DNA of 64,000 nucleotides from Escherichia coli (GTDB lineage: Bacteria; Pseudomonadota; Gammaproteobacteria; Enterobacterales; Enterobacteriaceae): the NCBI RefSeq assembly GCF_003334335.1, contig NZ_QOWQ01000006.1. One strand, 5' to 3'. Below are positions 4,093-51,000 of this stretch, one piece after another. Each line of letters starts with the position of its first letter. Positions within the stretch are counted from its first letter, which is position 1. A model generated the notes under the pieces. The model worked only from the letters and a program-made list of their open reading frames with translations. It had not been told where the DNA came from and made no database searches. The position numbers and the translations under genes are program-made.

Positions 4093-4223
4093 TGCCTGAC
4101 TCCAGCTTCCCTTATAAATTCCTGCTTCAAACTGGCGCTACTAATGCGCCACTTTCTTATATGGTCAATCACTTTCCTTAAAGAATACGTTTTGTGTGGT
4201 CACTATCTCCGTACATCTAACTA

Positions 4224-4234
4224 ACCTTTTAGGT
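4224..4234. promoter_or_regulatory. MqsA operator palindrome 1 (ACCTTTTAGGT)
   Basis: Perfect palindrome ACCT-N3-AGGT in the mqsR promoter; a second identical copy lies 32 bp downstream. Confidence 0.8.
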
Positions 4235-4255
4235 GCTTTTTCATTGCTGTAATTA

Positions 4256-4266
4256 ACCTTTTAGGT
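4256..4266. promoter_or_regulatory. MqsA operator palindrome 2 (ACCTTTTAGGT)
   Basis: Second copy of ACCTTTTAGGT, about 30 bp upstream of the mqsR start. Confidence 0.8.
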
Positions 4267-4296
4267 TATAACTAAAGTAACAGGGAGGCGGGGGTT

Positions 4297-4593
4297 ATGG
4301 AAAAACGCACACCACATACACGTTTGAGTCAGGTTAAAAAACTTGTCAATGCCGGGCAAGTTCGTACAACACGTAGTGCCCTGTTAAATGCAGATGAGTT
4401 AGGTTTGGATTTTGATGGTATGTGTAATGTTATCATTGGATTATCAGAGAGCGACTTTTATAAAAGCATGACCACCTACTCTGATCATACTATCTGGCAG
4501 GATGTTTACAGACCCAGGCTTGTTACAGGCCAGGTTTATCTTAAAATTACGGTAATTCATGACGTACTGATCGTCTCGTTTAAGGAGAAGTAA
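4297..4593 (+). CDS. mqsR: mRNA interferase toxin MqsR
   Basis: 98-aa ORF MEKRTPHTRLSQVKKLVNAGQVRTTRSALLNADELGLDFDG...; 1-nt gap to mqsA. Confidence 0.95.
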   Translation: MEKRTPHTRLSQVKKLVNAGQVRTTRSALLNADELGLDFDGMCNVIIGLSESDFYKSMTTYSDHTIWQDVYRPRLVTGQVYLKITVIHDVLIVSFKEK

Positions 4594-4594
4594 T

Positions 4595-4990
4595 ATGAAA
4601 TGTCCGGTTTGCCACCAGGGAGAAATGGTTTCTGGCATTAAAGATATTCCATACACCTTCCGTGGACGAAAAACAGTATTGAAAGGTATCCACGGTTTAT
4701 ATTGTGTCCATTGCGAAGAGAGCATCATGAATAAAGAAGAGTCAGATGCTTTCATGGCGCAAGTAAAGGCATTTCGGGCTTCGGTGAATGCCGAAACAGT
4801 GGCACCTGAATTTATAGTGAAGGTTCGAAAAAAGCTCTCTCTTACCCAAAAAGAGGCAAGCGAAATTTTTGGGGGAGGTGTAAATGCGTTTTCGCGTTAC
4901 GAAAAAGGCAATGCCCAACCTCATCCTTCCACAATCAAACTTTTACGTGTTCTGGATAAGCATCCAGAACTATTGAATGAAATCCGTTAA
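4595..4990 (+). CDS. mqsA: antitoxin / DNA-binding regulator MqsA
   Basis: 131-aa ORF with N-terminal Zn-binding CxxC...CxxC (CPVCHQ...CVHC) and C-terminal HTH. Confidence 0.95.
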   Translation: MKCPVCHQGEMVSGIKDIPYTFRGRKTVLKGIHGLYCVHCEESIMNKEESDAFMAQVKAFRASVNAETVAPEFIVKVRKKLSLTQKEASEIFGGGVNAFSRYEKGNAQPHPSTIKLLRVLDKHPELLNEIR

Positions 4991-5122
4991 TTAATGGAAA
5001 AGCGGGGGCAACTCGCTTTTTTCTTTACCGGAGTGTGAGCCAAATCACTCGCGATAAGTTTGAGCGAACAATGCCACAGGCGTATTGTTGTTGGGCTTAT
5101 AATTTCTCCGGTAAGGAATACC

Positions 5123-6730
5123 ATGTATACGCGAAATTTATTATGGCTGGTCAGCCTGGTAAGTGCGGCTCCTCTCTACGCTGCTGACGTTCCCGCCAAC
5201 ACACCGCTCGCCCCGCAACAAGTCTTTCGTTACAACAATCATAGCGACCCAGGTACGCTCGACCCGCAAAAGGTGGAGGAGAATACTGCCGCGCAGATTG
5301 TGCTGGATCTGTTTGAAGGTCTGGTATGGATGGACGGTGAAGGCCAGGTGCAGCCCGCTCAGGCTGAACGCTGGGAGATACTGGACGGCGGCAAGCGCTA
5401 TATTTTCCATCTGCGTAGCGGTTTGCAGTGGTCCGACGGTCAGCCTCTGACGGCAGAGGATTTTGTCCTCGGCTGGCAGCGCGCGGTTGACCCGAAAACG
5501 GCAAGCCCTTTTGCTGGCTATCTGGCACAGGCGCACATTAACAATGCCGCAGCTATTGTTGCGGGTAAAGCAGATGTTACATCGCTGGGTGTCAAAGCGA
5601 CGGATGATCGTACTCTTGAAGTTACGCTTGAGCAGCCGGTTCCTTGGTTCACGACGATGCTCGCCTGGCCGACGCTGTTCCCGGTTCCTCATCATGTCAT
5701 TGCTAAACATGGCGATAGCTGGAGTAAGCCAGAGAACATGGTTTACAACGGTGCCTTTGTGCTTGATCAGTGGGTAGTTAACGAAAAGATTACTGCACGC
5801 AAAAATCCAAAGTACCGCGATGCGCAACATACAGTATTGCAACAGGTTGAGTATCTGGCGCTAGATAATTCGGTCACCGGCTATAACCGCTATCGCGCGG
5901 GAGAGGTCGATCTCACCTGGGTTCCGGCGCAGCAAATTCCCGCCATTGAAAAATCACTGCCTGGCGAGCTACGAATTATTCCGCGTCTGAACAGCGAATA
6001 TTACAACTTCAACCTTGAGAAACCGCCATTTAACGATGTGCGAGTGCGTCGGGCGCTATATCTTACGGTTGATCGACAGCTTATTGCGCAAAAGGTACTG
6101 GGGTTGAGAACGCCCGCAACCACGCTGACGCCGCCAGAGGTAAAAGGCTTTAGCGCGACGACGTTCGATGAACTGCAAAAGCCAATGAGTGAGCGCGTCG
6201 CGATGGCAAAAGCCTTGCTGAAACAGGCGGGATACGACGCCTCTCATCCGCTACGCTTTGAGCTGTTCTACAACAAGTACGATCTGCATGAAAAGACCGC
6301 GATAGCGTTGTCTTCCGAATGGAAAAAATGGCTGGGTGCACAGGTGACGCTGCGCACAATGGAGTGGAAAACCTATCTTGATGCCCGACGAGCCGGTGAT
6401 TTCATGCTGTCTCGGCAGTCGTGGGATGCGACGTACAATGATGCTTCCAGCTTCCTGAACACGCTCAAAAGCGATAGTGAAGAAAACGTCGGTCACTGGA
6501 AAAATGCGCAGTATGACGCCTTACTAAACCAGGCCACGCAGATCACTGATGCGACAAAGCGTAATGCGTTGTATCAGCAGGCAGAAGTGATCATCAACCA
6601 ACAGGCACCGCTGATTCCTATCTACTATCAGCCGTTAATCAAACTGCTTAAACCCTACGTTGGCGGTTTTCCGCTGCATAATCCCCAGGATTATGTCTAC
6701 AGCAAAGAGTTGTATATCAAGGCACATTGA
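5123..6730 (+). CDS. ygiS: periplasmic solute-binding protein YgiS (ABC transporter family 5, oligopeptide/bile-acid type)
   Basis: MYTRNLLWLVSLVSAAPLYAADV signal peptide preceded by AAGGAA RBS; the track ORF is extended 21 codons upstream. Confidence 0.9.
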   Translation: MYTRNLLWLVSLVSAAPLYAADVPANTPLAPQQVFRYNNHSDPGTLDPQKVEENTAAQIVLDLFEGLVWMDGEGQVQPAQAERWEILDGGKRYIFHLRSGLQWSDGQPLTAEDFVLGWQRAVDPKTASPFAGYLAQAHINNAAAIVAGKADVTSLGVKATDDRTLEVTLEQPVPWFTTMLAWPTLFPVPHHVIAKHGDSWSKPENMVYNGAFVLDQWVVNEKITARKNPKYRDAQHTVLQQVEYLALDNSVTGYNRYRAGEVDLTWVPAQQIPAIEKSLPGELRIIPRLNSEYYNFNLEKPPFNDVRVRRALYLTVDRQLIAQKVLGLRTPATTLTPPEVKGFSATTFDELQKPMSERVAMAKALLKQAGYDASHPLRFELFYNKYDLHEKTAIALSSEWKKWLGAQVTLRTMEWKTYLDARRAGDFMLSRQSWDATYNDASSFLNTLKSDSEENVGHWKNAQYDALLNQATQITDATKRNALYQQAEVIINQQAPLIPIYYQPLIKLLKPYVGGFPLHNPQDYVYSKELYIKAH

Positions 6731-16218: not shown

Positions 16219-16322
16219 ACGTTCCTCCTTTATATGAACTCACCGGAGCAGGCTCCGGTGAGGTGTTGTGAACTTAAGTCTGGACGAAATGCCCGAAAAC
16301 GAAAGTTTGAGGCGTAAAAAGC

Positions 16323-22029: not shown

Positions 22030-22250
22030 ATTGCCTGATGCGCTACGCTCATCAGGCCTACAAAATCTATTGCAACATGTTGAATCTTCGTGCGTTTGTA
22101 GGCCGGATAAGGCGTTCACGACGCATCCGGCATTAGGTGCTCAATGCCTGATGCGCTACGCTTATCAGGCCTACAAAATCTATTGCAACATGTTGAATCT
22201 TCATGCGTTTGTAGGCGGATAAGGCGTTTTCGCCACATCAGGTAAGAGTG
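22030..22250. repeat. REP/BIME cluster with roughly 107-bp direct duplication
   Basis: gcctgatgcgctacgct(c/t)atcaggcctacaaaatctattgcaacatgttgaatcttc(g/a)tgcgtttgtaggc... occurs twice (about 22034-22115 and 22141-22222) with palindromic REP units. Confidence 0.85.
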
Positions 22251-33129: not shown

Positions 33130-33225
33130 TAGCTTTCGTAGGCCTGATAAGACGCGGCAGCGTCGCATCAGGCATTGTGCACGATTGCCGGATGCGGCGT
33201 GAACGCCTTATCCGGCCTGGATGGC
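33130..33225. repeat. REP elements between hybG and yghU
   Basis: gtaggcctgataagacgcg...cgcatcaggc and gccggatgcggcgtgaacgccttatccggcc palindromic units. Confidence 0.75.
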
Positions 33226-40432: not shown

Positions 40433-41782
40433 TTGGCGGGTTTTAACATCAAACATTGGTTTGCAGATGGCGCGTTTCGCACCATTATTCGCAATAGCGC
40501 CTGGTTAGGCTCCAGTAATGTCGTGAGCGCCTTGCTGGGTCTGTTGGCGCTCTCGTGTGCCGGTAAAGGGATGACGCCCGCCATGTTTGGCGTACTGGTG
40601 ATTGTGCAATCGTACGCCAAGTCGATCAGCGATTTTATTAAGTTTCAGACATGGCAACTGGTGGTTCAGTACGGAACACCAGCATTAACCAACAATAATC
40701 CGCAGCAATTCCGCAATGTCGTCTCATTTTCCTTCTCGCTGGATATCGTCAGCGGCGCGGTGGCGATTGTCGGTGGCATTGCCTTACTGCCATTCCTTTC
40801 CCATTCATTAGGTCTGGATGACCAAAGTTTTTGGCTGGCAGCGCTCTATTGCACGCTCATTCCTTCAATGGCTTCCTCCACGCCGACCGGCATTCTGCGT
40901 GCGGTAGATCGCTTCGATTTAATTGCTGTACAGCAGGCGACGAAACCTTTTCTGCGCGCAGCGGGGAGCGTCGTAGCCTGGTATTTTGACTTTGGTTTTG
41001 CGGGTTTTGTTATTGCCTGGTACGTGTCGAATCTGGTTGGCGGCACCATGTACTGGTGGTTTGCCGCGCGCGAATTACGCCGCCGAAATATCCATAACGC
41101 CTTCAAATTGAATCTGTTTGAGTCTGCCCGATACATTAAAGGCGCGTGGAGTTTTGTCTGGTCAACCAACATTGCCCACTCCATCTGGTCGGCGCGTAAC
41201 TCGTGCAGCACAGTGTTGGTGGGGATCGTGTTAGGACCCGCTGCCGCCGGGTTATTTAAAATCGCCATGACATTCTTCGACGCCGCCGGAACGCCAGCGG
41301 GTTTGCTGGGTAAAAGTTTTTACCCAGAGGTGATGCGTTTAGATCCGCGCACCACCAGACCGTGGTTGTTAGGTGTGAAGTCCGGTTTACTGGCGGGCGG
41401 AATCGGTATTCTGGTGGCGCTCGCGGTGTTGATCGTCGGCAAGCCGCTCATTTCGCTGGTGTTTGGCGTTAAGTATCTCGAAGCGTATGACCTGATTCAG
41501 GTGATGCTGGGCGCAATTGTGATTTCGATGCTGGGCTTCCCTCAGGAGTCATTGCTATTGATGGCGGGAAAACAGCGCGCTTTTCTCGTGGCGCAAACCA
41601 TCGCCTCAATCGGCTACATCGTATTGCTGTTCATGTTCTGTCATCTGTTTGGTGTGCTGGGAGCAGCGTTTGCTTACTTCGGTGGGCAATGTCTGGACGT
41701 GGCGCTCTCGTTAATTCCAACCTTAAAGGCATTTTTTCAGCGCCATTCCTTGCTTTATAACGCAGCCGGAGAGAAATCCTGA
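40433..41782 (+). CDS. yghQ: MOP-superfamily (Wzx-like) flippase YghQ, full length
   Basis: 449-aa polytopic ORF; start codon uncertain (track start is TTG); stop overlaps the next gene start (TGATG). Confidence 0.8.
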   Translation: MAGFNIKHWFADGAFRTIIRNSAWLGSSNVVSALLGLLALSCAGKGMTPAMFGVLVIVQSYAKSISDFIKFQTWQLVVQYGTPALTNNNPQQFRNVVSFSFSLDIVSGAVAIVGGIALLPFLSHSLGLDDQSFWLAALYCTLIPSMASSTPTGILRAVDRFDLIAVQQATKPFLRAAGSVVAWYFDFGFAGFVIAWYVSNLVGGTMYWWFAARELRRRNIHNAFKLNLFESARYIKGAWSFVWSTNIAHSIWSARNSCSTVLVGIVLGPAAAGLFKIAMTFFDAAGTPAGLLGKSFYPEVMRLDPRTTRPWLLGVKSGLLAGGIGILVALAVLIVGKPLISLVFGVKYLEAYDLIQVMLGAIVISMLGFPQESLLLMAGKQRAFLVAQTIASIGYIVLLFMFCHLFGVLGAAFAYFGGQCLDVALSLIPTLKAFFQRHSLLYNAAGEKS

Positions 41783-42606
41783 TGATGAGAAAATATTTCC
41801 CGCTTGAGGCGAGCGAGCGTCTATTTGTTGCGATTGAAGAAGATGATGTCGTTGATGCACAGGTTAGTTTGCCGCCGACTATTGCACTAAGTTGTACCAC
41901 CGAAATCATTCATGATAATTACGCGTTATGCCTGCAATTCTGGCTCAATGGCGTTGATCGTCAGGAGTTACTGCGTTTAGTTCGCAAACAAGCCAAAGGC
42001 GATGAGCTGACTGCTGATGAGCGCAAACAATTTAAATACATGCGAGCGCGCTACAAGCACCTGCGTTTTGCGCAACGGCTGTATTTAAAGAAGCATCAGG
42101 CCGGATTTTTATTCGGCAAAACGACCGTTTTTCTGGGGCGTTTTCAGGACGGCTTTCGTAACGGTAAGAAAAATATTGTGTCGTATTACGGCAACCTGTT
42201 ACGGATTTATTTAAGCTCTCCGGTCTGGTCGTTGGTGAACTATTCATTACGCCATAGCCAGTTAGAAAGCGTAAGCAGTTTTATTGCCTATCGGCAAAAG
42301 CAAATGCATACCCTGAAAGAGATTATTGCCAAACCGCGACTAACCGGTAGGGAATTTCATGATGTGCGAAAAATCATCAGCCAGCAGGTTTCTTATTACG
42401 ACACCTTAAGATCGCTTGATCCTGAAAATAAAGAGGCGTTACAGATATCCCGCTTCCTCGCCGCCATTAATGGCCTGATGGGAGATAAACACGACGACAT
42501 GGTGGCGGATGATATGGAAAACCGCCAGTCGTATGATGCACCGGTGGCGCTGGATAGCGATATTCGTCAGCGCTTAGAGCTGCTGATTTCGCGTTTTCCG
42601 CTATAG
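41782..42606 (+). CDS. hypothetical cytoplasmic protein (274 aa), coupled to yghQ
   Basis: ORF MMRKYFPLEASERLFVAIEEDD...; 1-nt overlap with the yghQ stop; no motif I can recognise. Confidence 0.6.
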   Translation: MMRKYFPLEASERLFVAIEEDDVVDAQVSLPPTIALSCTTEIIHDNYALCLQFWLNGVDRQELLRLVRKQAKGDELTADERKQFKYMRARYKHLRFAQRLYLKKHQAGFLFGKTTVFLGRFQDGFRNGKKNIVSYYGNLLRIYLSSPVWSLVNYSLRHSQLESVSSFIAYRQKQMHTLKEIIAKPRLTGREFHDVRKIISQQVSYYDTLRSLDPENKEALQISRFLAAINGLMGDKHDDMVADDMENRQSYDAPVALDSDIRQRLELLISRFPL

Positions 42607-42614
42607 CCGGAGCA

Positions 42615-43178
42615 ATGATGTCATCTCGTTTGATTATTGCGTTGATTATCATGCTCTTAGCCCCGGGTGTGCAGGCACACAATTTCGTCACTGGCAAAAC
42701 GGTTACCCCTGTTTATATCCAGGAAGGCGGCGAGCTGCTTCTGAATAGCGACGACGAAATTCACTACCAAAAGTGGAACAGCACACAATTAGCGGGAAAA
42801 GTCCGCATTATTCAGTATATCGCCGGGCGTAAGTCGGCGAAGAAAAAGAACTCACTGTTAATTAAAGCGGTTGAAGCGGCAAACTTTCCGCAGGATCGTT
42901 TTCAGCCCACCACCATTGTGAACACCGATGATGCCATCTTTGGTACTGGCTATTTTGTTGTTGGCAAAATCGAAAAAAATAAACGCCGCTATCCGTGGGC
43001 GCAATTCGTTATTGACGGCAATGGACAGGGACGCGTTGCCTGGCGCTTGCCGGAGCAGAGTTCAACCATTCTGGTGCTGAATAAAGCCGGGCAAATTCAG
43101 TGGGCAAAGGACGGCAGCCTGACGCCGGAAGAGGTAGATCATGTCATTGCGTTGGCGCAGAAACTGATCAATGAATAA
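42615..43178 (+). CDS. periplasmic YtfJ/HI0045-like protein
   Basis: 187-aa ORF with signal peptide MMSSRLIIALIIMLLAPGVQA and motifs (AGKVRIIQYIAGR, TTIVNTDDAI, QWAKDGSLTPEEV) that I recall from YtfJ. Confidence 0.65.
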   Translation: MMSSRLIIALIIMLLAPGVQAHNFVTGKTVTPVYIQEGGELLLNSDDEIHYQKWNSTQLAGKVRIIQYIAGRKSAKKKNSLLIKAVEAANFPQDRFQPTTIVNTDDAIFGTGYFVVGKIEKNKRRYPWAQFVIDGNGQGRVAWRLPEQSSTILVLNKAGQIQWAKDGSLTPEEVDHVIALAQKLINE

Positions 43179-43208
43179 AAAACTCAAAGGATTGAGGGCG
43201 TTAGTGAG

Positions 43209-44279
43209 ATGAAGCTGGTTGAACACTACATCATGCGTGGTACGCGCCGTCTGGTGCTGATTATCGTCGGTTTTCTGATCTTTATTTTCGCCAGCTACTC
43301 CGCACAGCGTTATCTGACCGAAGCGGCAAATGGGACATTAGCTCTTGATGTTGTGCTGGATATCGTTTTCTACAAAGTACTGATTGCACTGGAGATGTTG
43401 TTACCTGTTGGTCTGTATGTGTCAGTTGGCGTGACGCTAGGGCAGATGTATACCGACTCGGAAATTACCGCTATCTCTGCGGCGGGGGGCAGTCCGGGAC
43501 GCTTGTACAAAGCCGTTCTTTATCTGGCGATACCGCTAAGTATTTTTGTCACCCTTCTGTCGATGTATGGTCGTCCGTGGGCTTATGCGCAGATTTATCA
43601 ACTGGAGCAGCAGTCGCAGTCGGAGCTGGATGTTCGCCAGTTGCGGGCAAAGAAATTTAACACTAACGATAACGGACGAATGATCCTTTCGCAGACGGTT
43701 GATCAGGATAATAATCGCCTGACTGACGCGCTGATTTATACTTCTACTGCCAATCGAACCCGCATTTTCCGCGCCCGTTCGGTTGATGTGGTTGACCCAT
43801 CACCCGAGAAACCGACCGTTATGTTGCACAACGGCACTGCCTATCTTATCGATCATCAGGGGCGTGATGACAACGAACAGATCTACCGTAATCTGCAATT
43901 ACATCTGAATCCGCTGGATCAAAGCCCTAACGTCAAACGCAAAGCGAAATCGGTCACGGAGCTGGCGCGCTCCGTCTTTCCAGCCGATCATGCCGAACTG
44001 CAATGGCGGCAAAGCCGTGGCCTGACCGCATTGTTGATGGCGCTGCTGGCCATTTCATTAAGTCGGGTAAAACCGCGGCAAGGGCGATTTTCAACGTTAT
44101 TGCCACTGACGTTGCTGTTTATTGCCATTTTTTATGGCGGTGACGTCTGCCGTACGCTGGTGGCTAACGGCGCGATTCCCCTCATTCCTGGTTTGTGGTT
44201 AGTACCCGGACTCATGCTAATGGGCCTGCTGATGCTGGTCGCACGCGACTTCTCTTTGCTGCAGAAATTTTCCCGATGA
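43209..44279 (+). CDS. LptF/LptG-family (YjgP/YjgQ) permease, first of pair
   Basis: 356-aa ORF; YTDSEITAISAAG and KPRQGRFSTLLP resemble the LptF motifs YTESEIT and NPRQGR; multiple TM segments with a large periplasmic loop. Confidence 0.75.
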   Translation: MKLVEHYIMRGTRRLVLIIVGFLIFIFASYSAQRYLTEAANGTLALDVVLDIVFYKVLIALEMLLPVGLYVSVGVTLGQMYTDSEITAISAAGGSPGRLYKAVLYLAIPLSIFVTLLSMYGRPWAYAQIYQLEQQSQSELDVRQLRAKKFNTNDNGRMILSQTVDQDNNRLTDALIYTSTANRTRIFRARSVDVVDPSPEKPTVMLHNGTAYLIDHQGRDDNEQIYRNLQLHLNPLDQSPNVKRKAKSVTELARSVFPADHAELQWRQSRGLTALLMALLAISLSRVKPRQGRFSTLLPLTLLFIAIFYGGDVCRTLVANGAIPLIPGLWLVPGLMLMGLLMLVARDFSLLQKFSR

Positions 44280-45355
44280 ATGTTTTCAGCCGCTATTTAA
44301 TCCGTCATCTCTTTCTCGGTTTTGCCGCCGCCGCAGGGCTATTGCTGCCGCTTTTTACCACCTTCAACCTGATTAACGAACTGGATGATGTCAGCCCGGG
44401 CGGTTATCGCTGGACTCAGGCGGTGCTGGTGGTGCTAATGACCTTACCGCGCACACTGGTCGAACTTTCGCCATTTATCGCCTTATTGGGAGGGATTGTC
44501 GGCCTGGGGCAGTTATCGAAAAACAGTGAGCTTACCGCCATTCGCAGCATGGGGTTTTCTATCTTCCGTATTGCACTGGTGGCGCTGGTTGCAGGGATAT
44601 TGTGGACTGTTTCGTTAGGCGCGATAGATGAGTGGGTAGCGTCGCCATTACAGCAACAGGCGTTGCAAATCAAATCGACCGCCACCGCGTTGGGGGAGGA
44701 CGATGACATTACCGGCAATATGCTGTGGGCCAGGCGTGGTAATGAATTTGTGACGGTGAAATCGCTGAACGAGCAGGGCCAGCCGGTGGGCGTGGAGATT
44801 TTTCATTATCGCGACGATCTCTCGCTCGAATCCTACATTTATGCACGCAGTGCCACCATTGAAGACGACAAAACGTGGATCCTGCATGGTGTGAATCATA
44901 AAAAATGGCTGAATGGCAAAGAAACGCTGGAAACATTAGATAATCTTGCCTGGCAATCGGCCTTCACCAGTATGGATCTTGAAGAGTTATCAATGCCGGG
45001 CAATACTTTTTCTGTCCGTCAGCTTAATCATTACATCCATTATTTGCAGGAAACCGGGCAACCCAGCAGCGAATACCGCCTTGCACTGTGGGAAAAACTG
45101 GGGCAACCCATCCTGACCCTGGCGATGATTTTGCTGGCTGTGCCGTTTACCTTTAGCGCCCCGCGCTCGCCAGGGATGGGTAGCCGTCTCGCTGTAGGTG
45201 TCATCGTTGGCTTACTCACCTGGATCAGCTATCAAATCATGGTCAATCTGGGATTGCTATTTGCGTTGAGCGCACCTGTTACCGCGCTCGGTTTACCGAT
45301 AGCGTTTGTGCTGGTGGCGTTGAGCCTGGTGTATTGGTATGACAGACAACATTAA
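44276..45355 (+). CDS. LptF/LptG-family (YjgP/YjgQ) permease, second of pair
   Basis: Start at MNVFSRYLIRHLFLGF via ATGA overlap with the upstream stop; LptG-like motifs (ELTAIRSMGFS, RSPGMGSRLAVG); the track ORF is extended 27 codons upstream. Confidence 0.75.
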   Translation: MNVFSRYLIRHLFLGFAAAAGLLLPLFTTFNLINELDDVSPGGYRWTQAVLVVLMTLPRTLVELSPFIALLGGIVGLGQLSKNSELTAIRSMGFSIFRIALVALVAGILWTVSLGAIDEWVASPLQQQALQIKSTATALGEDDDITGNMLWARRGNEFVTVKSLNEQGQPVGVEIFHYRDDLSLESYIYARSATIEDDKTWILHGVNHKKWLNGKETLETLDNLAWQSAFTSMDLEELSMPGNTFSVRQLNHYIHYLQETGQPSSEYRLALWEKLGQPILTLAMILLAVPFTFSAPRSPGMGSRLAVGVIVGLLTWISYQIMVNLGLLFALSAPVTALGLPIAFVLVALSLVYWYDRQH

Positions 45356-45356
45356 A

Positions 45357-45383
45357 CCCGCCGTGGCGCAACACCACGGCGGG
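45357..45383. terminator. bidirectional hairpin between the permease operon and the SPT-like gene
   Basis: cccgccgtgg-cgcaaca-ccacggcggg inverted repeat. Confidence 0.6.
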
Positions 45384-45459
45384 CTCACATTACTGCTTCA
45401 GAGTAGCAAATGCCTGAATGATGGCATCGATTTGCTCACGACTGTGAGCAGCGTTTACG

Positions 45460-46569
45460 CTACAGCGCAGCAGCGTGATGCCTGCAGGCGCGGCAGGTGG
45501 CAGGTGGCAGGATAAGATTCACATAAACGCCCAGCGAAATAAGCTCGCGCCAGATGCGTAAACCGTCCTCTTTCGAACCGATTATTACCGGCACTACCGG
45601 GCTAATATGTGAACTTAACTCATAACCCAGTTTTTGCAGACCGTCATACAGATGGTTGGCATTATCCATCAGCTTTTGCCGCAGCTCTGGTTGTGTGGCA
45701 ATAGTTCTTAACGACGAGCGCACGGTCGCAATGCAGGACGGAGAAGGAGAGGCGGTAAAAATATACGGGCGGCTGCCGTAGCGCAGCACTTCCATCGCTT
45801 CCGAACCGACAGCAAAACCGCCAATCGAGGCCAGACTTTTACTGAAGGTGCCAACGATAATATCCACATCATCTTCAACGCCGACAGCTTCAGCCAGTCC
45901 GCGCCCCGTTGCGCCTAACACGCCAAACGAATGCGCTTCATCGACAATCAAATAACCACCGAGACGACGTTTGATATCAACAATTTCCGCTAACGGCGCA
46001 ACGTCACCGAGCATGCTGTAGATACCCTCAACGATGATAATCGCCTCTTTCGCCCGTTCACCGAGGCGAACCATGCGCCGTTCCAGATCTTTAGCATCGT
46101 TATGGCGGAAACGAATAATTTCCGCGCCACCGAGAGAACAGGCGTCATAAATACTGGCGTGGCTGTCGGCATCCAGTAACACCACGGCGTTATGGTCGGC
46201 AAGTGCGCTGATGACGCCTAAATTAGCGGTATAACCGGTTGAAAAAACGATAGCGGTAGGGCGATTGAAAAACTCGGCAATCTCTTTCTCTAACGCCAGG
46301 TGCGGCGCATAACTGCCGTTTGCCATACGAGAACCGGTGGTGCCGGTACCTTGGGCCGCTAACGCGGCCTGACCTTCGCTGATGGCATCATGATTAAAGG
46401 TTAAACCGAGATAATTATTGGTCCCGGCCAGAATCACTTTTTTATTGCCGATCCGGCCTTCGGTGGCGGAATACACTTCATCAATACAGGTGCCAAACGG
46501 TGTTAACCCGTTGTCACTAAATTGCAGTCGCTCGCCAGCAAGGCGCGCATATTTATCGTATAGCCCCAT
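45460..46569 (-). CDS. serine palmitoyltransferase-like alpha-oxoamine synthase (PLP-dependent), 3' end apparently frameshifted
   Basis: 369-aa ORF with GTFSKS PLP-lysine motif and class-II aminotransferase fold; C-terminus TCRACRHHAAAL is atypical, and an alternative frame restores a canonical end at the TAA at 45390-45392. Confidence 0.8.
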   Translation of the reverse strand: MGLYDKYARLAGERLQFSDNGLTPFGTCIDEVYSATEGRIGNKKVILAGTNNYLGLTFNHDAISEGQAALAAQGTGTTGSRMANGSYAPHLALEKEIAEFFNRPTAIVFSTGYTANLGVISALADHNAVVLLDADSHASIYDACSLGGAEIIRFRHNDAKDLERRMVRLGERAKEAIIIVEGIYSMLGDVAPLAEIVDIKRRLGGYLIVDEAHSFGVLGATGRGLAEAVGVEDDVDIIVGTFSKSLASIGGFAVGSEAMEVLRYGSRPYIFTASPSPSCIATVRSSLRTIATQPELRQKLMDNANHLYDGLQKLGYELSSHISPVVPVIIGSKEDGLRIWRELISLGVYVNLILPPATCRACRHHAAAL

Positions 46570-46817
46570 TATTTATTCTCCAGCCATGGAAGTAGAGTTT
46601 CCATTAATTGCGCAGGGGTTTTGACATCCAGCAGAATATTAATAGGAATGGAAATATCGAATCTGTCTTCCAGCATCATTAAGAGATCCATCACTTTGAT
46701 CGACTCCAGGCCAAGATCGTTGACGAGATCGCTGTCGGGCTTAATTTCCACACCGTTTTCGACCAAATCCTGTAAACAGGAAAGGATGTAATCCATTACT
46801 ATTTCACGATTTACCAT
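46569..46817 (-). CDS. acyl carrier protein (phosphopantetheine-binding)
   Basis: 82-aa acidic ORF with DLGLESIKVMDL Ser-attachment motif; 1-nt overlap with the downstream SPT-like start. Confidence 0.8.
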   Translation of the reverse strand: MVNREIVMDYILSCLQDLVENGVEIKPDSDLVNDLGLESIKVMDLLMMLEDRFDISIPINILLDVKTPAQLMETLLPWLENK

Positions 46818-46848
46818 AGAAACGTTAACACACCTTTAAACAAGACAA

Positions 46849-47763
46849 TCAAAATAGCCCGTTGCGTAATGCGTGTTCCAGGCTAATCCCGGGAAACCAA
46901 TTAATATCTTCAGAAATACGGTTATTACTTGCCGACCAGTCGGCGTGGGTTAATTCACGAATTTTCGAGCGGGTCAGCATAGGTTCTTTACCTGCCAGGC
47001 GACTCAACGCGGTACTGATATCCGCAAGGCCGGTGAGTACCGGCAGAGGAATGCCAACCATTCGCACGGAACCGCAACGGGCGTCGGCGGCAAGTTGCTG
47101 TACGCGTTGCCAGTCATAGCCGCCGGCGACGCCATCGCATAATTCATAGGTTTGCGTCTGTATAGTTTCGGCGCTTAACCACTGACCCACTGCTTGCGCG
47201 AAATCGGTGACGTGCAGAAAAGAGAGCTGTGTATCTGGCGCACCAAGTCGTGGCAGCAGGCCGCGCAGCATCCAGTCAAACAGCGGTTTTAACTCTTTAT
47301 CGCCGGGACCATACACGGCTGTCGGGCGAAAAACGCCCAGCGTAATTTCGTCCGCCATTGCTGCCAGTCGTTGCTCGGCGACGTATTTGGATTTTGCATA
47401 CCAGGAGAGCTCGGGATGGCGCGCCGCCAGCGAAGAGATAAACAGAAAACGTTGGCAAAAGCCGCTCTCTTTTGCTGCTTGCATCAGGCGCAGGCTGCCG
47501 TCAACGTTACAGCGGGTGAAAATCTCTTCTTTGTGCCCGCGCACTTGCCCGGCGCAATGGACCACTACGCTGGCTCCGGCAACCAGCTCGCTAAGTGAAT
47601 GAGTATCTTCCAGCGAACCGCGCACCCAGGTGAGATTATCATTGACGTGAGCGCGGGCAGTACGCGTCAATGCGCGAACGTGAAAGCCGCGGGCGAGCAG
47701 GTTATCGATAATATATTTACCGATAAACCCGGTAGCGCCCGTCACCGCGACAGTTTGATTCAT
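46849..47763 (-). CDS. NAD(P)-dependent epimerase/dehydratase-family reductase (candidate 3-ketosphinganine/ceramide reductase)
   Basis: 304-aa ORF with VTGATGFIGKYI Rossmann motif and YAKSK catalytic dyad; 4-nt overlap with the upstream adenylase gene. Confidence 0.8.
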   Translation of the reverse strand: MNQTVAVTGATGFIGKYIIDNLLARGFHVRALTRTARAHVNDNLTWVRGSLEDTHSLSELVAGASVVVHCAGQVRGHKEEIFTRCNVDGSLRLMQAAKESGFCQRFLFISSLAARHPELSWYAKSKYVAEQRLAAMADEITLGVFRPTAVYGPGDKELKPLFDWMLRGLLPRLGAPDTQLSFLHVTDFAQAVGQWLSAETIQTQTYELCDGVAGGYDWQRVQQLAADARCGSVRMVGIPLPVLTGLADISTALSRLAGKEPMLTRSKIRELTHADWSASNNRISEDINWFPGISLEHALRNGLF

Positions 47764-49481
47764 GCCAGGGATTCCTGCACATTAAGACTGGCAGCATAAG
47801 CCTTCTGATAACGTTTTTTCGCTTCCGCACGGGCAGGCTTGCCGGAGGACGTTCGGGGAATACTGTGGGGCGGCAACAGATCGATAGCCGCGGTCACGCC
47901 AAATTCGCTTTGGATCCGTGCCGCCAGCGCGTGGATAAGCTGCCCGCGACGTTCTTCGTCGCTGATCCGACACTGGATCTGCAAAATGATTTTTTCCTGG
48001 GCGGTAACAAAAGCAATCGCATCGCCAGAATGAATTTCCGGTTCCTGTTCCGCTATATATTCAATATCCTGCGGCCAGATATTACGGCCACGAATAATAA
48101 TCAGATCTTTAATGCGTCCGGTGACATACAGATAACCGTCCAGCAGATAACCGAGGTCGCCGGTGTCTAACCAGCCCGTCGCGGCAATCTCGTCTTGCGA
48201 AACCTGGTCGCCAAAGTAACCGCTCATCAGACTGGGACCGGAGATGCAAATATGGCCTACCACACGTTCCGCGACCGGCATACCTGCTTCATTGCGGATT
48301 TCAATACCATGTTCCGGCAACGCTTTGCCGCAGTTGACGAAAGTCGATACGGCGCGTGTCTCTGCACCCGGCGCGACGGCTTTACCCTGATATTCGAGGA
48401 TGTCGCGATCCACTTCGTTAACCACAACCCCGGAGGCTTCATCAGAGAAGCTGACAGCCAGCGCATTTTCTGCCAGTCCGTAGCACGGCATGAAAGTTTT
48501 ATTGTCAAAGTTAACCTGACGGAAACATTCAGCGAATTGATGGAGTTGTTCTGCGGAGATGGGTTCTGCACCAATACCAGCGACGCGCCAGCAGGAAAGA
48601 TCCAGTTCAGCGAGATCTTTTTCATTCACGCGGCGCTGGCACAATTCATAGCCAAACGGCGGCGCAACGGAAACGGTGCCGCGATTTTTACTGATCAATT
48701 TAAGCCATTGCAGAGGACGCATGGCAAAATCCTGAGTGCGCAAATAATCTACTGAAAGCTGCGTGGCGACGGGGGTCAGGAGAAAGCCGACCAGTCCCAT
48801 ATCATGGTAGAAAGGCAGCCAGGAGACGCAGCGGTCGCCAGGGCGTAATTTAATGCCGTCGTGGCTTATAGCACGTAGATTAGCCATCACTTCGCGATGG
48901 GTGATAATGACGCCACGGGGAAAACGGGTGCTGCCGGAGGTGTACTGGAGGTAGGCGATATCGTTCGGAACTGGACGCTGGAGCGCAACATCGGCTTCCG
49001 GTAATGCCTTAAACCAGGCGTGGCTTAAAACATGTAATTCGGGGTTGTCATGCGTCGCGGCATTGACCAGTGGCAACCACTCATCACCAGTGATAATGGC
49101 TGCGGGCTGGCAACTTGCCAGTAAACCCTGCAATTTGGCGCTCCAGGAATCCCGCTGACCAACGCCCATTGGAATCGCCAACGGGACGGCGACTAAGCCG
49201 GCATACTGGCAGGCAAAAAAAGCCTCTACGAACTCGCTACTTGTTTCGGCAATCAGTGCCACGCGATCGCCTTTTTTCAGGTTCAGCGATAACAACCGCT
49301 TCGCACCAGCTTCGGCACGTGCTTTTAACGTCTGATATTCCAGTTGATCTTCAAGTTGGCAACGTCTGTCATAAAAATTCATTCCGGCGCTACTCAGAGC
49401 GGCGTAGTCCAAAGCATCAACAAGCGTTGGAAAATCGGCATAGCGCATAGGTAGGGAATGCGTAAAGATTTTATTAGACAT
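47760..49481 (-). CDS. fatty acyl-AMP ligase / acyl-ACP synthetase-like adenylating enzyme
   Basis: About 573 aa with AMP-binding core YTSGSTRFPRGV and TGDLGY motif; start uncertain (track starts at GTG 49490, ATG at 49481). Confidence 0.8.
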   Translation of the reverse strand: MSNKIFTHSLPMRYADFPTLVDALDYAALSSAGMNFYDRRCQLEDQLEYQTLKARAEAGAKRLLSLNLKKGDRVALIAETSSEFVEAFFACQYAGLVAVPLAIPMGVGQRDSWSAKLQGLLASCQPAAIITGDEWLPLVNAATHDNPELHVLSHAWFKALPEADVALQRPVPNDIAYLQYTSGSTRFPRGVIITHREVMANLRAISHDGIKLRPGDRCVSWLPFYHDMGLVGFLLTPVATQLSVDYLRTQDFAMRPLQWLKLISKNRGTVSVAPPFGYELCQRRVNEKDLAELDLSCWRVAGIGAEPISAEQLHQFAECFRQVNFDNKTFMPCYGLAENALAVSFSDEASGVVVNEVDRDILEYQGKAVAPGAETRAVSTFVNCGKALPEHGIEIRNEAGMPVAERVVGHICISGPSLMSGYFGDQVSQDEIAATGWLDTGDLGYLLDGYLYVTGRIKDLIIIRGRNIWPQDIEYIAEQEPEIHSGDAIAFVTAQEKIILQIQCRISDEERRGQLIHALAARIQSEFGVTAAIDLLPPHSIPRTSSGKPARAEAKKRYQKAYAASLNVQESLA

Positions 49482-49857
49482 ATACACCACGAAAAAATTG
49501 GATATCCAAAATAAAATGACAATAATGCGGTGGATTATATAGGCATAAAAGATAAATGAGATAGTATTTTCATCAGTGTGAAAATGAACATTGATTTAAA
49601 TAATGAGTTTGAGTTTTTTTGTTTTTATTGTGAATGATATTTAATTTATGAATATATTAAGAAGAAGCCTTGTCCGGTCGCCTTAAATCGACAAAAGGCA
49701 TTGTGGCGCTTCTGTGTAGTCTCTGACCTTATCGTAATCATTAATAAATACTATTTATTCGTCGTTTGTATTCATTGGGTTGATTATTAAGGTGCCGTTC
49801 GTTGCTGTTGCAACCTGTTTGTCACCGTTAATTATTTGTTACCCACAGAACAGAACT

Positions 49858-51000
49858 ATGGAATGCGATCTGCTGATGATTAAAATTGAAAAAGTAATTA
49901 ATAAAAATGACCTTAAGGCATTTATCGCTTTTCCGTCATCACTTTATCCCGACGATCCAAACTGGATACCCCCTTTATTCATTGAACGCAACGAGCATTT
50001 GTCTGCGAAAAATCCGGGGACGGACCATATCATCTGGCAGGCGTGGGTAGCAAAAAAAGCGGGGCAGATAGTTGGGCGTATTACCGCGCAAATAGATACC
50101 TTGCACCGCGAGCGTTACGGCAAAGATACCGGTCATTTCGGCATGATTGACGCCATTGATGATCCGCAGGTTTTTGCCGCGTTGTTTGGCGCAGCGGAAG
50201 CGTGGTTGAAGTCACAAGGTGCAAGTAAGATCAGCGGTCCTTTCAGCCTGAATATCAATCAGGAAAGCGGATTACTGATTGAAGGTTTTGACACACCACC
50301 CTGTGCGATGATGCCACACGGCAAACCGTGGTATGCCGCGCATATTGAACAACTGGGTTATCACAAAGGCATTGATTTACTGGCGTGGTGGATGCAGCGA
50401 ACCGATCTCACTTTCTCTCCGGCGCTAAAAAAACTGATGGATCAGGTGCGCAAAAAGGTGACCATTCGCTGCATCAATCGTCAGCGGTTTGCCGAAGAGA
50501 TGCAGATCCTGCGTGAGATTTTCAACTCTGGCTGGCAGCACAACTGGGGATTTGTGCCGTTTACCGAACATGAATTCGCGACCATGGGCGATCAACTTAA
50601 ATATCTGGTGCCGGACGATATGATCTATATCGCTGAGATTGATTCTGCACCCTGCGCGTTTATTGTCGGCTTGCCGAACATCAACGAGGCGATTGCCGAT
50701 CTGAACGGATCGCTCTTTCCCTTCGGCTGGGCAAAATTGCTGTGGCGTTTGAAAGTCAGCGGTGTGCGAACTGCGCGAGTACCGCTGATGGGCGTGCGCG
50801 ACGAGTATCAGTTCAGCCGCATCGGCCCGGTGATTGCGCTGTTATTGATTGAAGCCTTACGCGATCCGTTTGCCCGCCGGAAGATCGATGCGCTGGAGAT
50901 GTCATGGATCCTCGAAACCAATACAGGCATGAATAACATGCTGGAACGCATTGGGGCGGAGCCGTACAAGCGTTACCGATTGTATGAAAAGCAGATTTAA
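49858..51000 (+). CDS. yghO: YghO, intact (candidate N-acyltransferase; pseudogene in K-12)
   Basis: About 380 aa from MECDLLMIKIEK (track ORF starts at TTG 49780); divergent from the lipid operon; start uncertain. Confidence 0.7.
   Translation: MECDLLMIKIEKVINKNDLKAFIAFPSSLYPDDPNWIPPLFIERNEHLSAKNPGTDHIIWQAWVAKKAGQIVGRITAQIDTLHRERYGKDTGHFGMIDAIDDPQVFAALFGAAEAWLKSQGASKISGPFSLNINQESGLLIEGFDTPPCAMMPHGKPWYAAHIEQLGYHKGIDLLAWWMQRTDLTFSPALKKLMDQVRKKVTIRCINRQRFAEEMQILREIFNSGWQHNWGFVPFTEHEFATMGDQLKYLVPDDMIYIAEIDSAPCAFIVGLPNINEAIADLNGSLFPFGWAKLLWRLKVSGVRTARVPLMGVRDEYQFSRIGPVIALLLIEALRDPFARRKIDALEMSWILETNTGMNNMLERIGAEPYKRYRLYEKQI

Follow-up and report, generated by a model that had tools for sequence, protein, structure and literature searches.

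Does the mqsRA locus upstream of position 4990 in a 64,000-nucleotide stretch of Escherichia coli DNA (the window) represent an intact, self-regulated module, and is it better understood as a regulator of its host or as an acquired element? mqsRA is among the best-characterised toxin-antitoxin systems, and crystal structures are available for its proteins, for their complex and for MqsA bound to this operator. Its physiological role is disputed in the literature, where it is viewed as an addictive selfish module, a stress regulator or a phage defence. We are close to certain that positions 4297-4990 hold the intact chromosomal mqsRA type II toxin-antitoxin operon of E. coli, encoding proteins of K-12 reference sequence. 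The locus is an ordinary feature, already known and explained, and nothing in the sequence speaks against the identification.

The toxin gene mqsR (4297-4593, + strand) is a 98-codon open reading frame encoding a 98-aa RelE-like endoribonuclease. The 131 codons of mqsA (4595-4990, + strand) encode a 131-aa antitoxin and repressor with an N-terminal Zn-ribbon and a C-terminal XRE-type helix-turn-helix (HTH). A reading of this DNA from its sequence alone had described a toxin-first order with a 1-nt gap; indeed, the single base T4594 separates the mqsR TAA from the mqsA ATG on the same strand. MqsR is identical (100%, full length) to the crystallised E. coli K-12 protein (3HI2 chain B, motility quorum-sensing regulator MqsR) and covers all model positions (1-95 of 95) of the Pfam family PF15723, MqsR_toxin (E = 6.1e-35); an NCBIfam search of MqsR assigned no family. 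MqsA (MqsA/YgiT) is likewise 100% identical over its full length to the K-12 structures 2KZ8 (chain A), 3GN5 (chain A) and 3O9X. It matches the NCBIfam model TIGR03830 (MqsA family) with 146.7 bits, against a cut-off of 61.8, and also TIGR03831 (YgiT_finger). With both proteins matching the reference exactly, no residue required for toxicity, zinc binding or DNA contact is missing. Alignment located Lys56, Gln68, Tyr81 and Lys96 of MqsR (K56, Q68, Y81 and K96), which alanine scanning had defined as toxicity residues (PMC2791442), and the zinc-binding cysteines C3, C6, C37 and C40 of MqsA. The HTH residues N97 and R101, the base-contacting DNA-recognition residues as relayed from Brown et al. 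in PMC5422877, are present and invariant in five homologues, and the N-domain DNA contacts F22, R23, K58 and R61 are also in place. Where the sequence-only reading had seen by eye no obvious mutation in the MqsA HTH or the MqsR catalytic residues, comparison with the reference returned zero substitutions in either protein.

The match to E. coli K-12 mqsR-mqsA (ygiU-ygiT, b3022-b3021) holds throughout: proteins, gene order, 1-nt gap, palindromes and their spacing, terminator and neighbours agree, and no difference lies inside the module. The locus is thus the reference member of the MqsR/MqsA family and shows all the sequence features by which that family is defined. The 204-bp ygiV-mqsR and 132-bp mqsA-ygiS spacers are identical to those of K-12, and the RegulonDB-based Table 1 of PMC5120126 lists both spacers together with a terminator after mqsA. 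A 951-bp stretch spanning the module is 100% identical in many E. coli chromosomes, including K-12 W3110 and C600 derivatives, and RefSeq labels the identical DNA mqsR and mqsA (2299 genomes). GCU, the triplet cleaved by MqsR, occurs once in mqsR, at 4518, and three times in mqsA.

The window as a whole differs from a K-12-like genome by 5 SNPs in its first 9.5 kb. It is not K-12, since it carries an 8.4-kb segment (41502-49897) that the K-12-like chromosome lacks; there, a 1.2-kb IS5 lies between yghO and yghQ. The segment is intact in about 4063 of 5426 complete E. coli genomes and encodes an LPS-biosynthesis-like protein, a YtfJ-family protein, LptF/LptG paralogues, serine palmitoyltransferase (spt), acyl carrier protein, an epimerase and a fatty acyl-AMP ligase. 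Compared with strain 300709, to which it is otherwise 99.9% identical, the segment has GGCAGGT duplicated in tandem (7 bp) at 45492-45498, in the - strand ORF 45460-46569. The duplication frameshifts the 3' end of spt, giving 369 aa with an altered tail in place of 390 aa, and may reflect either a genuine inactivating mutation or a mistake in the assembly. Gathering-level Rfam matches comprise a C0719 sRNA (58464-58685, - strand), an ES173 sRNA (16257-16320, - strand) and two naRNA4 (REP-derived) elements (22101-22171, + strand; 33141-33217, both strands). Two copies of a repeat of ~85 bp, about 113 bp apart, lie around 22032-22228, and no tRNA genes were found in the 64-kb window.

Two copies of ACCTTTTAGGT had been reported upstream of mqsR, about 32 bp apart, and both were found exactly where expected, at 4224-4234 and 4256-4266 on the + strand. 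Their starts are separated by 32 bp, with 21 bp between the cores, and 30 nt separate the end of the proximal core from the mqsR ATG. Each palindrome core consists of 4-nt arms flanking a non-palindromic TTT spacer. In the distal MqsA operator (4224-4234, + strand), 'palindrome 2' of Soo & Wood 2013, the symmetry is limited to these arms (ACCT-TTT-AGGT), and the sequence continues …AGGTGC. The proximal MqsA operator (4254-4268, + strand), their 'palindrome 1', extends to a perfect 15-bp inverted repeat, TAACCTTTTAGGTTA, of the form TAACCT-TTT-AGGTTA. Both cores end a 17-nt direct-repeat unit, TAAyTAACCTTTTAGGT, whose copies at 4218-4234 and 4250-4266 are identical at 16/17 positions. Soo & Wood (PMC4894380) placed the PmqsRA palindromes at 3166595-3166609 and 3166629-3166639 of U00096.2; with the mqsR start codon as anchor, these positions convert exactly to 4254-4268 and 4224-4234. 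MqsA binds the motif ACCT-N3-AGGT, which occurs twice in PmqsRA (PMC4894380; the 2017 P. putida paper, PMC5422877). The 55-nt stretch containing both operators is identical in 2147 of 2296 E. coli genomes, and the substitutions in three sampled variants of the operator region (4193, 4203, 4207, 4236 and 4242) all fall outside both 11-nt cores.

A search of both strands of the 64-kb window, following the earlier proposal to look for further ACCT-N3-AGGT sites, returned none besides the two upstream of mqsR. Nor did the window contain any other copy of ACCTTTTAGGT when one mismatch was allowed. Relaxing the spacer to N2-4 added only 318-327, between mdaB and ygiZ, where ACCTCAAGGT forms an MqsA-like palindrome with a 2-nt spacer of the csgD type. 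The resulting three sites compare with 0.97 expected and are reached in 6 of 100 shuffles, which is chance level. Beyond the window, we scanned 100,044 species representatives for twin sites of the form ACCTTTTAGGT-N10-40-ACCTTTTAGGT. Of the 46 loci that it yielded, most are repeats of a tandem, iteron-like or CRISPR-like kind (in Bacteroidota, Firmicutes, Acinetobacter and other taxa); tblastn found no MqsR or MqsA homologue at any of the 46, even at E = 10. Escherichia is missing from the matches, so the mqsRA cassette is evidently absent from the representative genome of E. coli, and the scan is uninformative about mqsRA. At one of the loci (5740-5840 in Acinetobacter sp. KCTC 92772), three tandem units of ~32 bp (…TAAGTAACCTTTTAGGTnATTTTTTTTAAATG…) reproduce the 11-mer and the 32-bp spacing of PmqsRA. 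No MqsR or MqsA homologue was found in that 9.7-kb locus; the repeats may be iterons or sites of another regulator, and their likeness to PmqsRA is perhaps coincidental.

The position of the operators relative to the promoter suggests how repression could be achieved. We read TTGCTG (4244-4249, + strand) as the candidate -35 hexamer of the promoter pRA and TATAAC (4267-4272, + strand), 17 nt further on, as its candidate -10. The proximal operator fills the spacer between these candidate hexamers and overlaps the candidate -10; the distal operator immediately precedes the -35. The assignment of the hexamers is supported by the plasmid homologues of Rahnella and Yersinia, in which a perfect TATAAT adjoins the proximal palindrome at the place corresponding to the candidate pRA -10. 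A consensus promoter scan did not call pRA, because the -35 matches the consensus at only 3/6 positions and the -10 ends in C. Hexamers this weak are consistent with the measurements of Fraikin et al. (PMC6918082), in which pRA was only very weakly active. Translation signals precede both genes: a Shine-Dalgarno sequence GGGAGG (4283-4288, + strand) lies 8 nt before the mqsR ATG, and AAGGAG (4582-4587, + strand), inside the end of mqsR, serves mqsA.

Two constitutive mqsA promoters, pA1 and pA2, have been described inside the mqsR ORF (Fraikin et al. 2019, PMC6918082). They are not regulated by MqsA, are in combination stronger than derepressed pRA, and uncouple mqsA from mqsR. The consensus scan detected a sigma-70-like site, TTGTTA-16-TAAAAT, in the 3' part of mqsR (4520-4547, + strand); judged by its sequence, this is probably the published pA1. 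The pA2 transcription start site, given as 111 nt upstream (PMC6918082), places at about 4444, and the published text description provides no secure position for the pA2 hexamers. Downstream of mqsA, an intrinsic terminator (4996-5022, + strand; -12.8 kcal/mol) consists of a GCGGG/CTCGC stem extended by A/T pairs and followed by T6. A second, terminator-like hairpin, TGGCGC-7 nt-GCGCCA with a T-rich tail (4133-4151, + strand; -10.9 kcal/mol), lies between ygiV and the mqsRA promoter. The sequence-only reading had taken the whole for the known autoregulatory architecture, apparently intact. Identical proteins and operators at the published coordinates bear out an intact autoregulated module; what that description omitted is the pair of constitutive mqsA promoters inside mqsR.

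From the literature on identical sequence, a working model can be transferred to this locus with regard to MqsA binding, repression and RNase activity; the findings of Brown et al. (JBC 2011, 2013) enter it as relayed by PMC4803016, PMC5422877 and PMC6918082. According to this literature, one MqsA dimer would bind each ACCT-N3-AGGT palindrome via its C-terminal HTH (N97, R101), and occupancy of the proximal site, which covers the core promoter, would repress pRA. MqsR would bind the N-terminal zinc domain of MqsA and destabilise the MqsA-DNA complex, acting as a de-repressor rather than a co-repressor. With the toxin gene in first position, an excess of antitoxin would be secured by the two constitutive, non-autoregulated promoters in mqsR together with the separate mqsA Shine-Dalgarno sequence. 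Free MqsR, as described in the literature, would cleave RNA at GCU and stop growth. HigBA and HicAB share with mqsRA the reversed, toxin-first order, a RelE-like toxin fold and an XRE-type HTH antitoxin, and residues 63-130 of MqsA match HigA-2 weakly (E = 4.6e-4). Unlike the antitoxins of those systems, MqsA has an N-terminal zinc-ribbon domain for toxin binding, and MqsR differs from their toxins in its reported de-repressor role and in its GCU-specific, ribosome-independent cleavage.

Homologues on plasmids show which elements of this arrangement are retained at greater distance. MqsA homologues were detected by tblastn on 104 plasmid records. Two 100%-identity matches filed as plasmids in PLSDB, NZ_MG591698.1 (353 kb) and NZ_CP141089.1 (4.9 Mb), carry the chromosomal mdaB-qseBC-mqsRA-parC context and are evidently mislabelled; no genuine plasmid copy of the E. 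coli mqsRA allele was found among the plasmid matches. All four genuine plasmid loci have the toxin-first order and a gap of 1-2 nt. Rahnella aceris pRAHAQ02, with an MqsA 67% identical to that of E. coli, has two TAACCT-N3-AGGTTA sites 31 bp apart, a Yersinia similis IncFII plasmid has a palindrome pair with ACCCT/AGGGT arms, and a Pseudomonas sp. MPC6 plasmid has the single site TAACCTATTAGGTTA. In the Pectobacterium plasmid locus, mqsR follows another ORF, and no site was found within 160 bp upstream. The plasmid homologues and PP_4205/PP_4204 of P. putida KT2440 share with the E. coli module the toxin-first order, K56, Q68, Y81 and K96 of the toxin, and the four cysteines, N97 and R101 of the antitoxin; the Rahnella, Yersinia and Pseudomonas plasmid homologues also share a palindrome of the (T)AACCT-N3-AGGTT(A) type upstream of the toxin gene. 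What differs is the protein sequence (54-67% identity) and the spacer triplet, and whereas the Rahnella, Yersinia and Pseudomonas copies are plasmid-borne and near anti-restriction genes, the E. coli module is chromosomal. That the motif recurs independently in otherwise unrelated upstream DNA supports its function as an operator. We also observed that the anti-restriction genes near the plasmid homologues include ardA, in what looks like the leading region. The Y. similis operator (TACCCT-TTT-AGGGTA, in locus positions 1100-1200) has its altered arms despite unchanged N97 and R101 in MqsA, and the N-domain contact positions 22, 23, 58 and 61 differ.

Comparison across E. coli genomes defines the mqsRA cassette as a segment of ~927 bp (4095-5021, + strand) that is present or absent between ygiV and ygiS. 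mqsRA occurs in 2299 of the 5426 complete genomes (42%), always on the chromosome, at the same site, essentially in single copy and at least 99% identical; the flanks of the cassette occur in all 5426. In mqsRA-negative genomes, such as O157 AR-0428 and APEC O2:K1:H4, ygiV is directly followed by ygiS. At the empty site, GGGAA replaces 4095-5021 or, equivalently, GGGAATC replaces 4095-5023, so that 5-7 bp overall stand in for the cassette. Its GC content is 41% vs 52% in each flank, and no terminal direct or inverted repeats were found at its ends. Contained within it are the upstream hairpin, the promoter with its operators, the internal promoters and the terminator. A search of a phage collection returned a single distant MqsA-like match (33% identity, Pseudomonas phage Hali) and no evidence of phage origin. 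We put forward, as a tentative reading that could well prove wrong, that mqsRA is a self-contained, transcriptionally insulated cassette, acquired by a single illegitimate-recombination event or spread as a replacement by homologous recombination of its flanks, rather than by a mobile-element mechanism. On this reading, the low GC content, the lack of terminal repeats, integrase and target duplication, the one fixed ygiV/ygiS site and the unrelated 5-7-base alternative would point away from such a mechanism. If true, the insulated-cassette reading would contradict the generalisation that transferred chromosomal toxin-antitoxin units lack terminators. This insertion anatomy is only a mildly new element of the locus.

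The surroundings of the cassette are themselves variable. ygiS is also deleted in some genomes, giving a group of strains that lack both mqsRA and ygiS. The ygiZ-ygiS region is a rearrangement hotspot in E. coli (records including NZ_CP029180.1 and NZ_CP027126.1): one strain has lost the DNA from ygiZ into mqsA, most of that gene included, in a deletion bounded by IS1B, and some mqsRA-positive strains have IS1 insertions in or beside the locus.

Three other explanations of the locus have to be weighed. One is that the twin ACCTTTTAGGT sites are chance or duplicated sequence devoid of operator function, or the sites of another DNA-binding protein. The raw motif count would allow this: the two ACCT-N3-AGGT sites in the window compare with 0.45-0.97 expected, and at least two occurred in 8 of 100 dinucleotide shuffles, which is within the shuffle range. 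Exact twin 11-mers are also found at the 46 unrelated loci of other phyla, none of them near an MqsR or MqsA homologue. The number of sites alone is thus unremarkable; it is their clustering that stands out. Two sites less than 100 bp apart arose in only 5 of 5000 mononucleotide shuffles, making a pair within 32 bp very improbable, and the probability of a second identical 11-mer inside +/-100 bp is about 5e-5. Moreover, the sites are the experimentally bound palindromes of the published, identical sequence, on both of which an MqsA footprint has been published, their cores are invariant among the sampled E. coli variants, and diverged plasmid mqsR genes in otherwise unrelated surroundings are preceded by the motif as well. 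A chance origin can accordingly be set aside as extremely improbable. Just as little probability attaches to the idea that the locus is a three-component MqsRAC toxin-antitoxin-chaperone phage-defence system rather than a two-gene module. MqsRAC of E. coli C496_10, which defends against T2 (Vassallo et al., PMC9519451), has a toxin and an antitoxin of the same families as here, and in the window a gene, ygiS, does lie directly downstream of mqsA. However, YgiS is an ABC-type substrate-binding protein and not a SecB-like chaperone, and ygiS lies outside the cassette, beyond the terminator, and is kept in genomes that lack mqsRA. The chaperone-dependent antitoxin extension of MqsRAC is absent as well, MqsA being the 131-aa K-12 protein with no C-terminal extension. 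PADLOC made no defence-system assignment, with no match for MqsR or YgiS and only weak HTH-level matches of MqsA to RmrA. The locus is therefore the two-gene form, as there is no SecB-like chaperone.

A more substantial alternative is that mqsRA is integrated into its host as a global regulator, with MqsA repressing rpoS, csgD and cspD, MqsR tuning ygiS and ghoT, and a link to qseBC. It draws on reports from the Wood and Page laboratories of MqsA binding at mqsRA-like palindromes of rpoS and csgD, and on the position of the locus. The gene neighbourhood is that of K-12 (mdaB, ygiZ, qseC, qseB, ygiW, ygiV, mqsR, mqsA, ygiS, parC and plsC), and the sequence-only reading had placed the module next to the qseBC two-component system. 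This is right as to proximity, with about 1.3 kb from the qseB start (3013, - strand) to the mqsR ATG, but the two are not adjacent: ygiW and ygiV lie between them, and qseBC reads in the opposite direction. Fraikin et al. found that deleting mqsRA or expressing MqsA moderately had no effect on the rpoS, csgD and cspD promoters, and none on stress tolerance or biofilm; in their view, what had been seen earlier for qseBC and ygiS probably came from polarity or from the strain background. In our comparison, 58% of complete E. coli genomes lack the cassette yet keep qseBC, ygiW, ygiV and mostly ygiS, which a core regulatory role would hardly predict and which fits the view of Fraikin et al. The 64-kb window, too, is devoid of any further ACCT-N3-AGGT site. 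We consider a global regulatory role unlikely. A low-GC, insulated and patchily distributed cassette would best fit a horizontally acquired, addiction-type module rather than a core regulator.

As an intact mqsRA, the locus changes nothing and is useful only for annotating the window. The cassette boundaries, the presence in 42% of genomes, the invariant operator cores and the operator type kept in plasmid homologues are of modest value for the continuing debate over the nature of mqsRA: host regulator, or selfish and possibly defensive accessory element.
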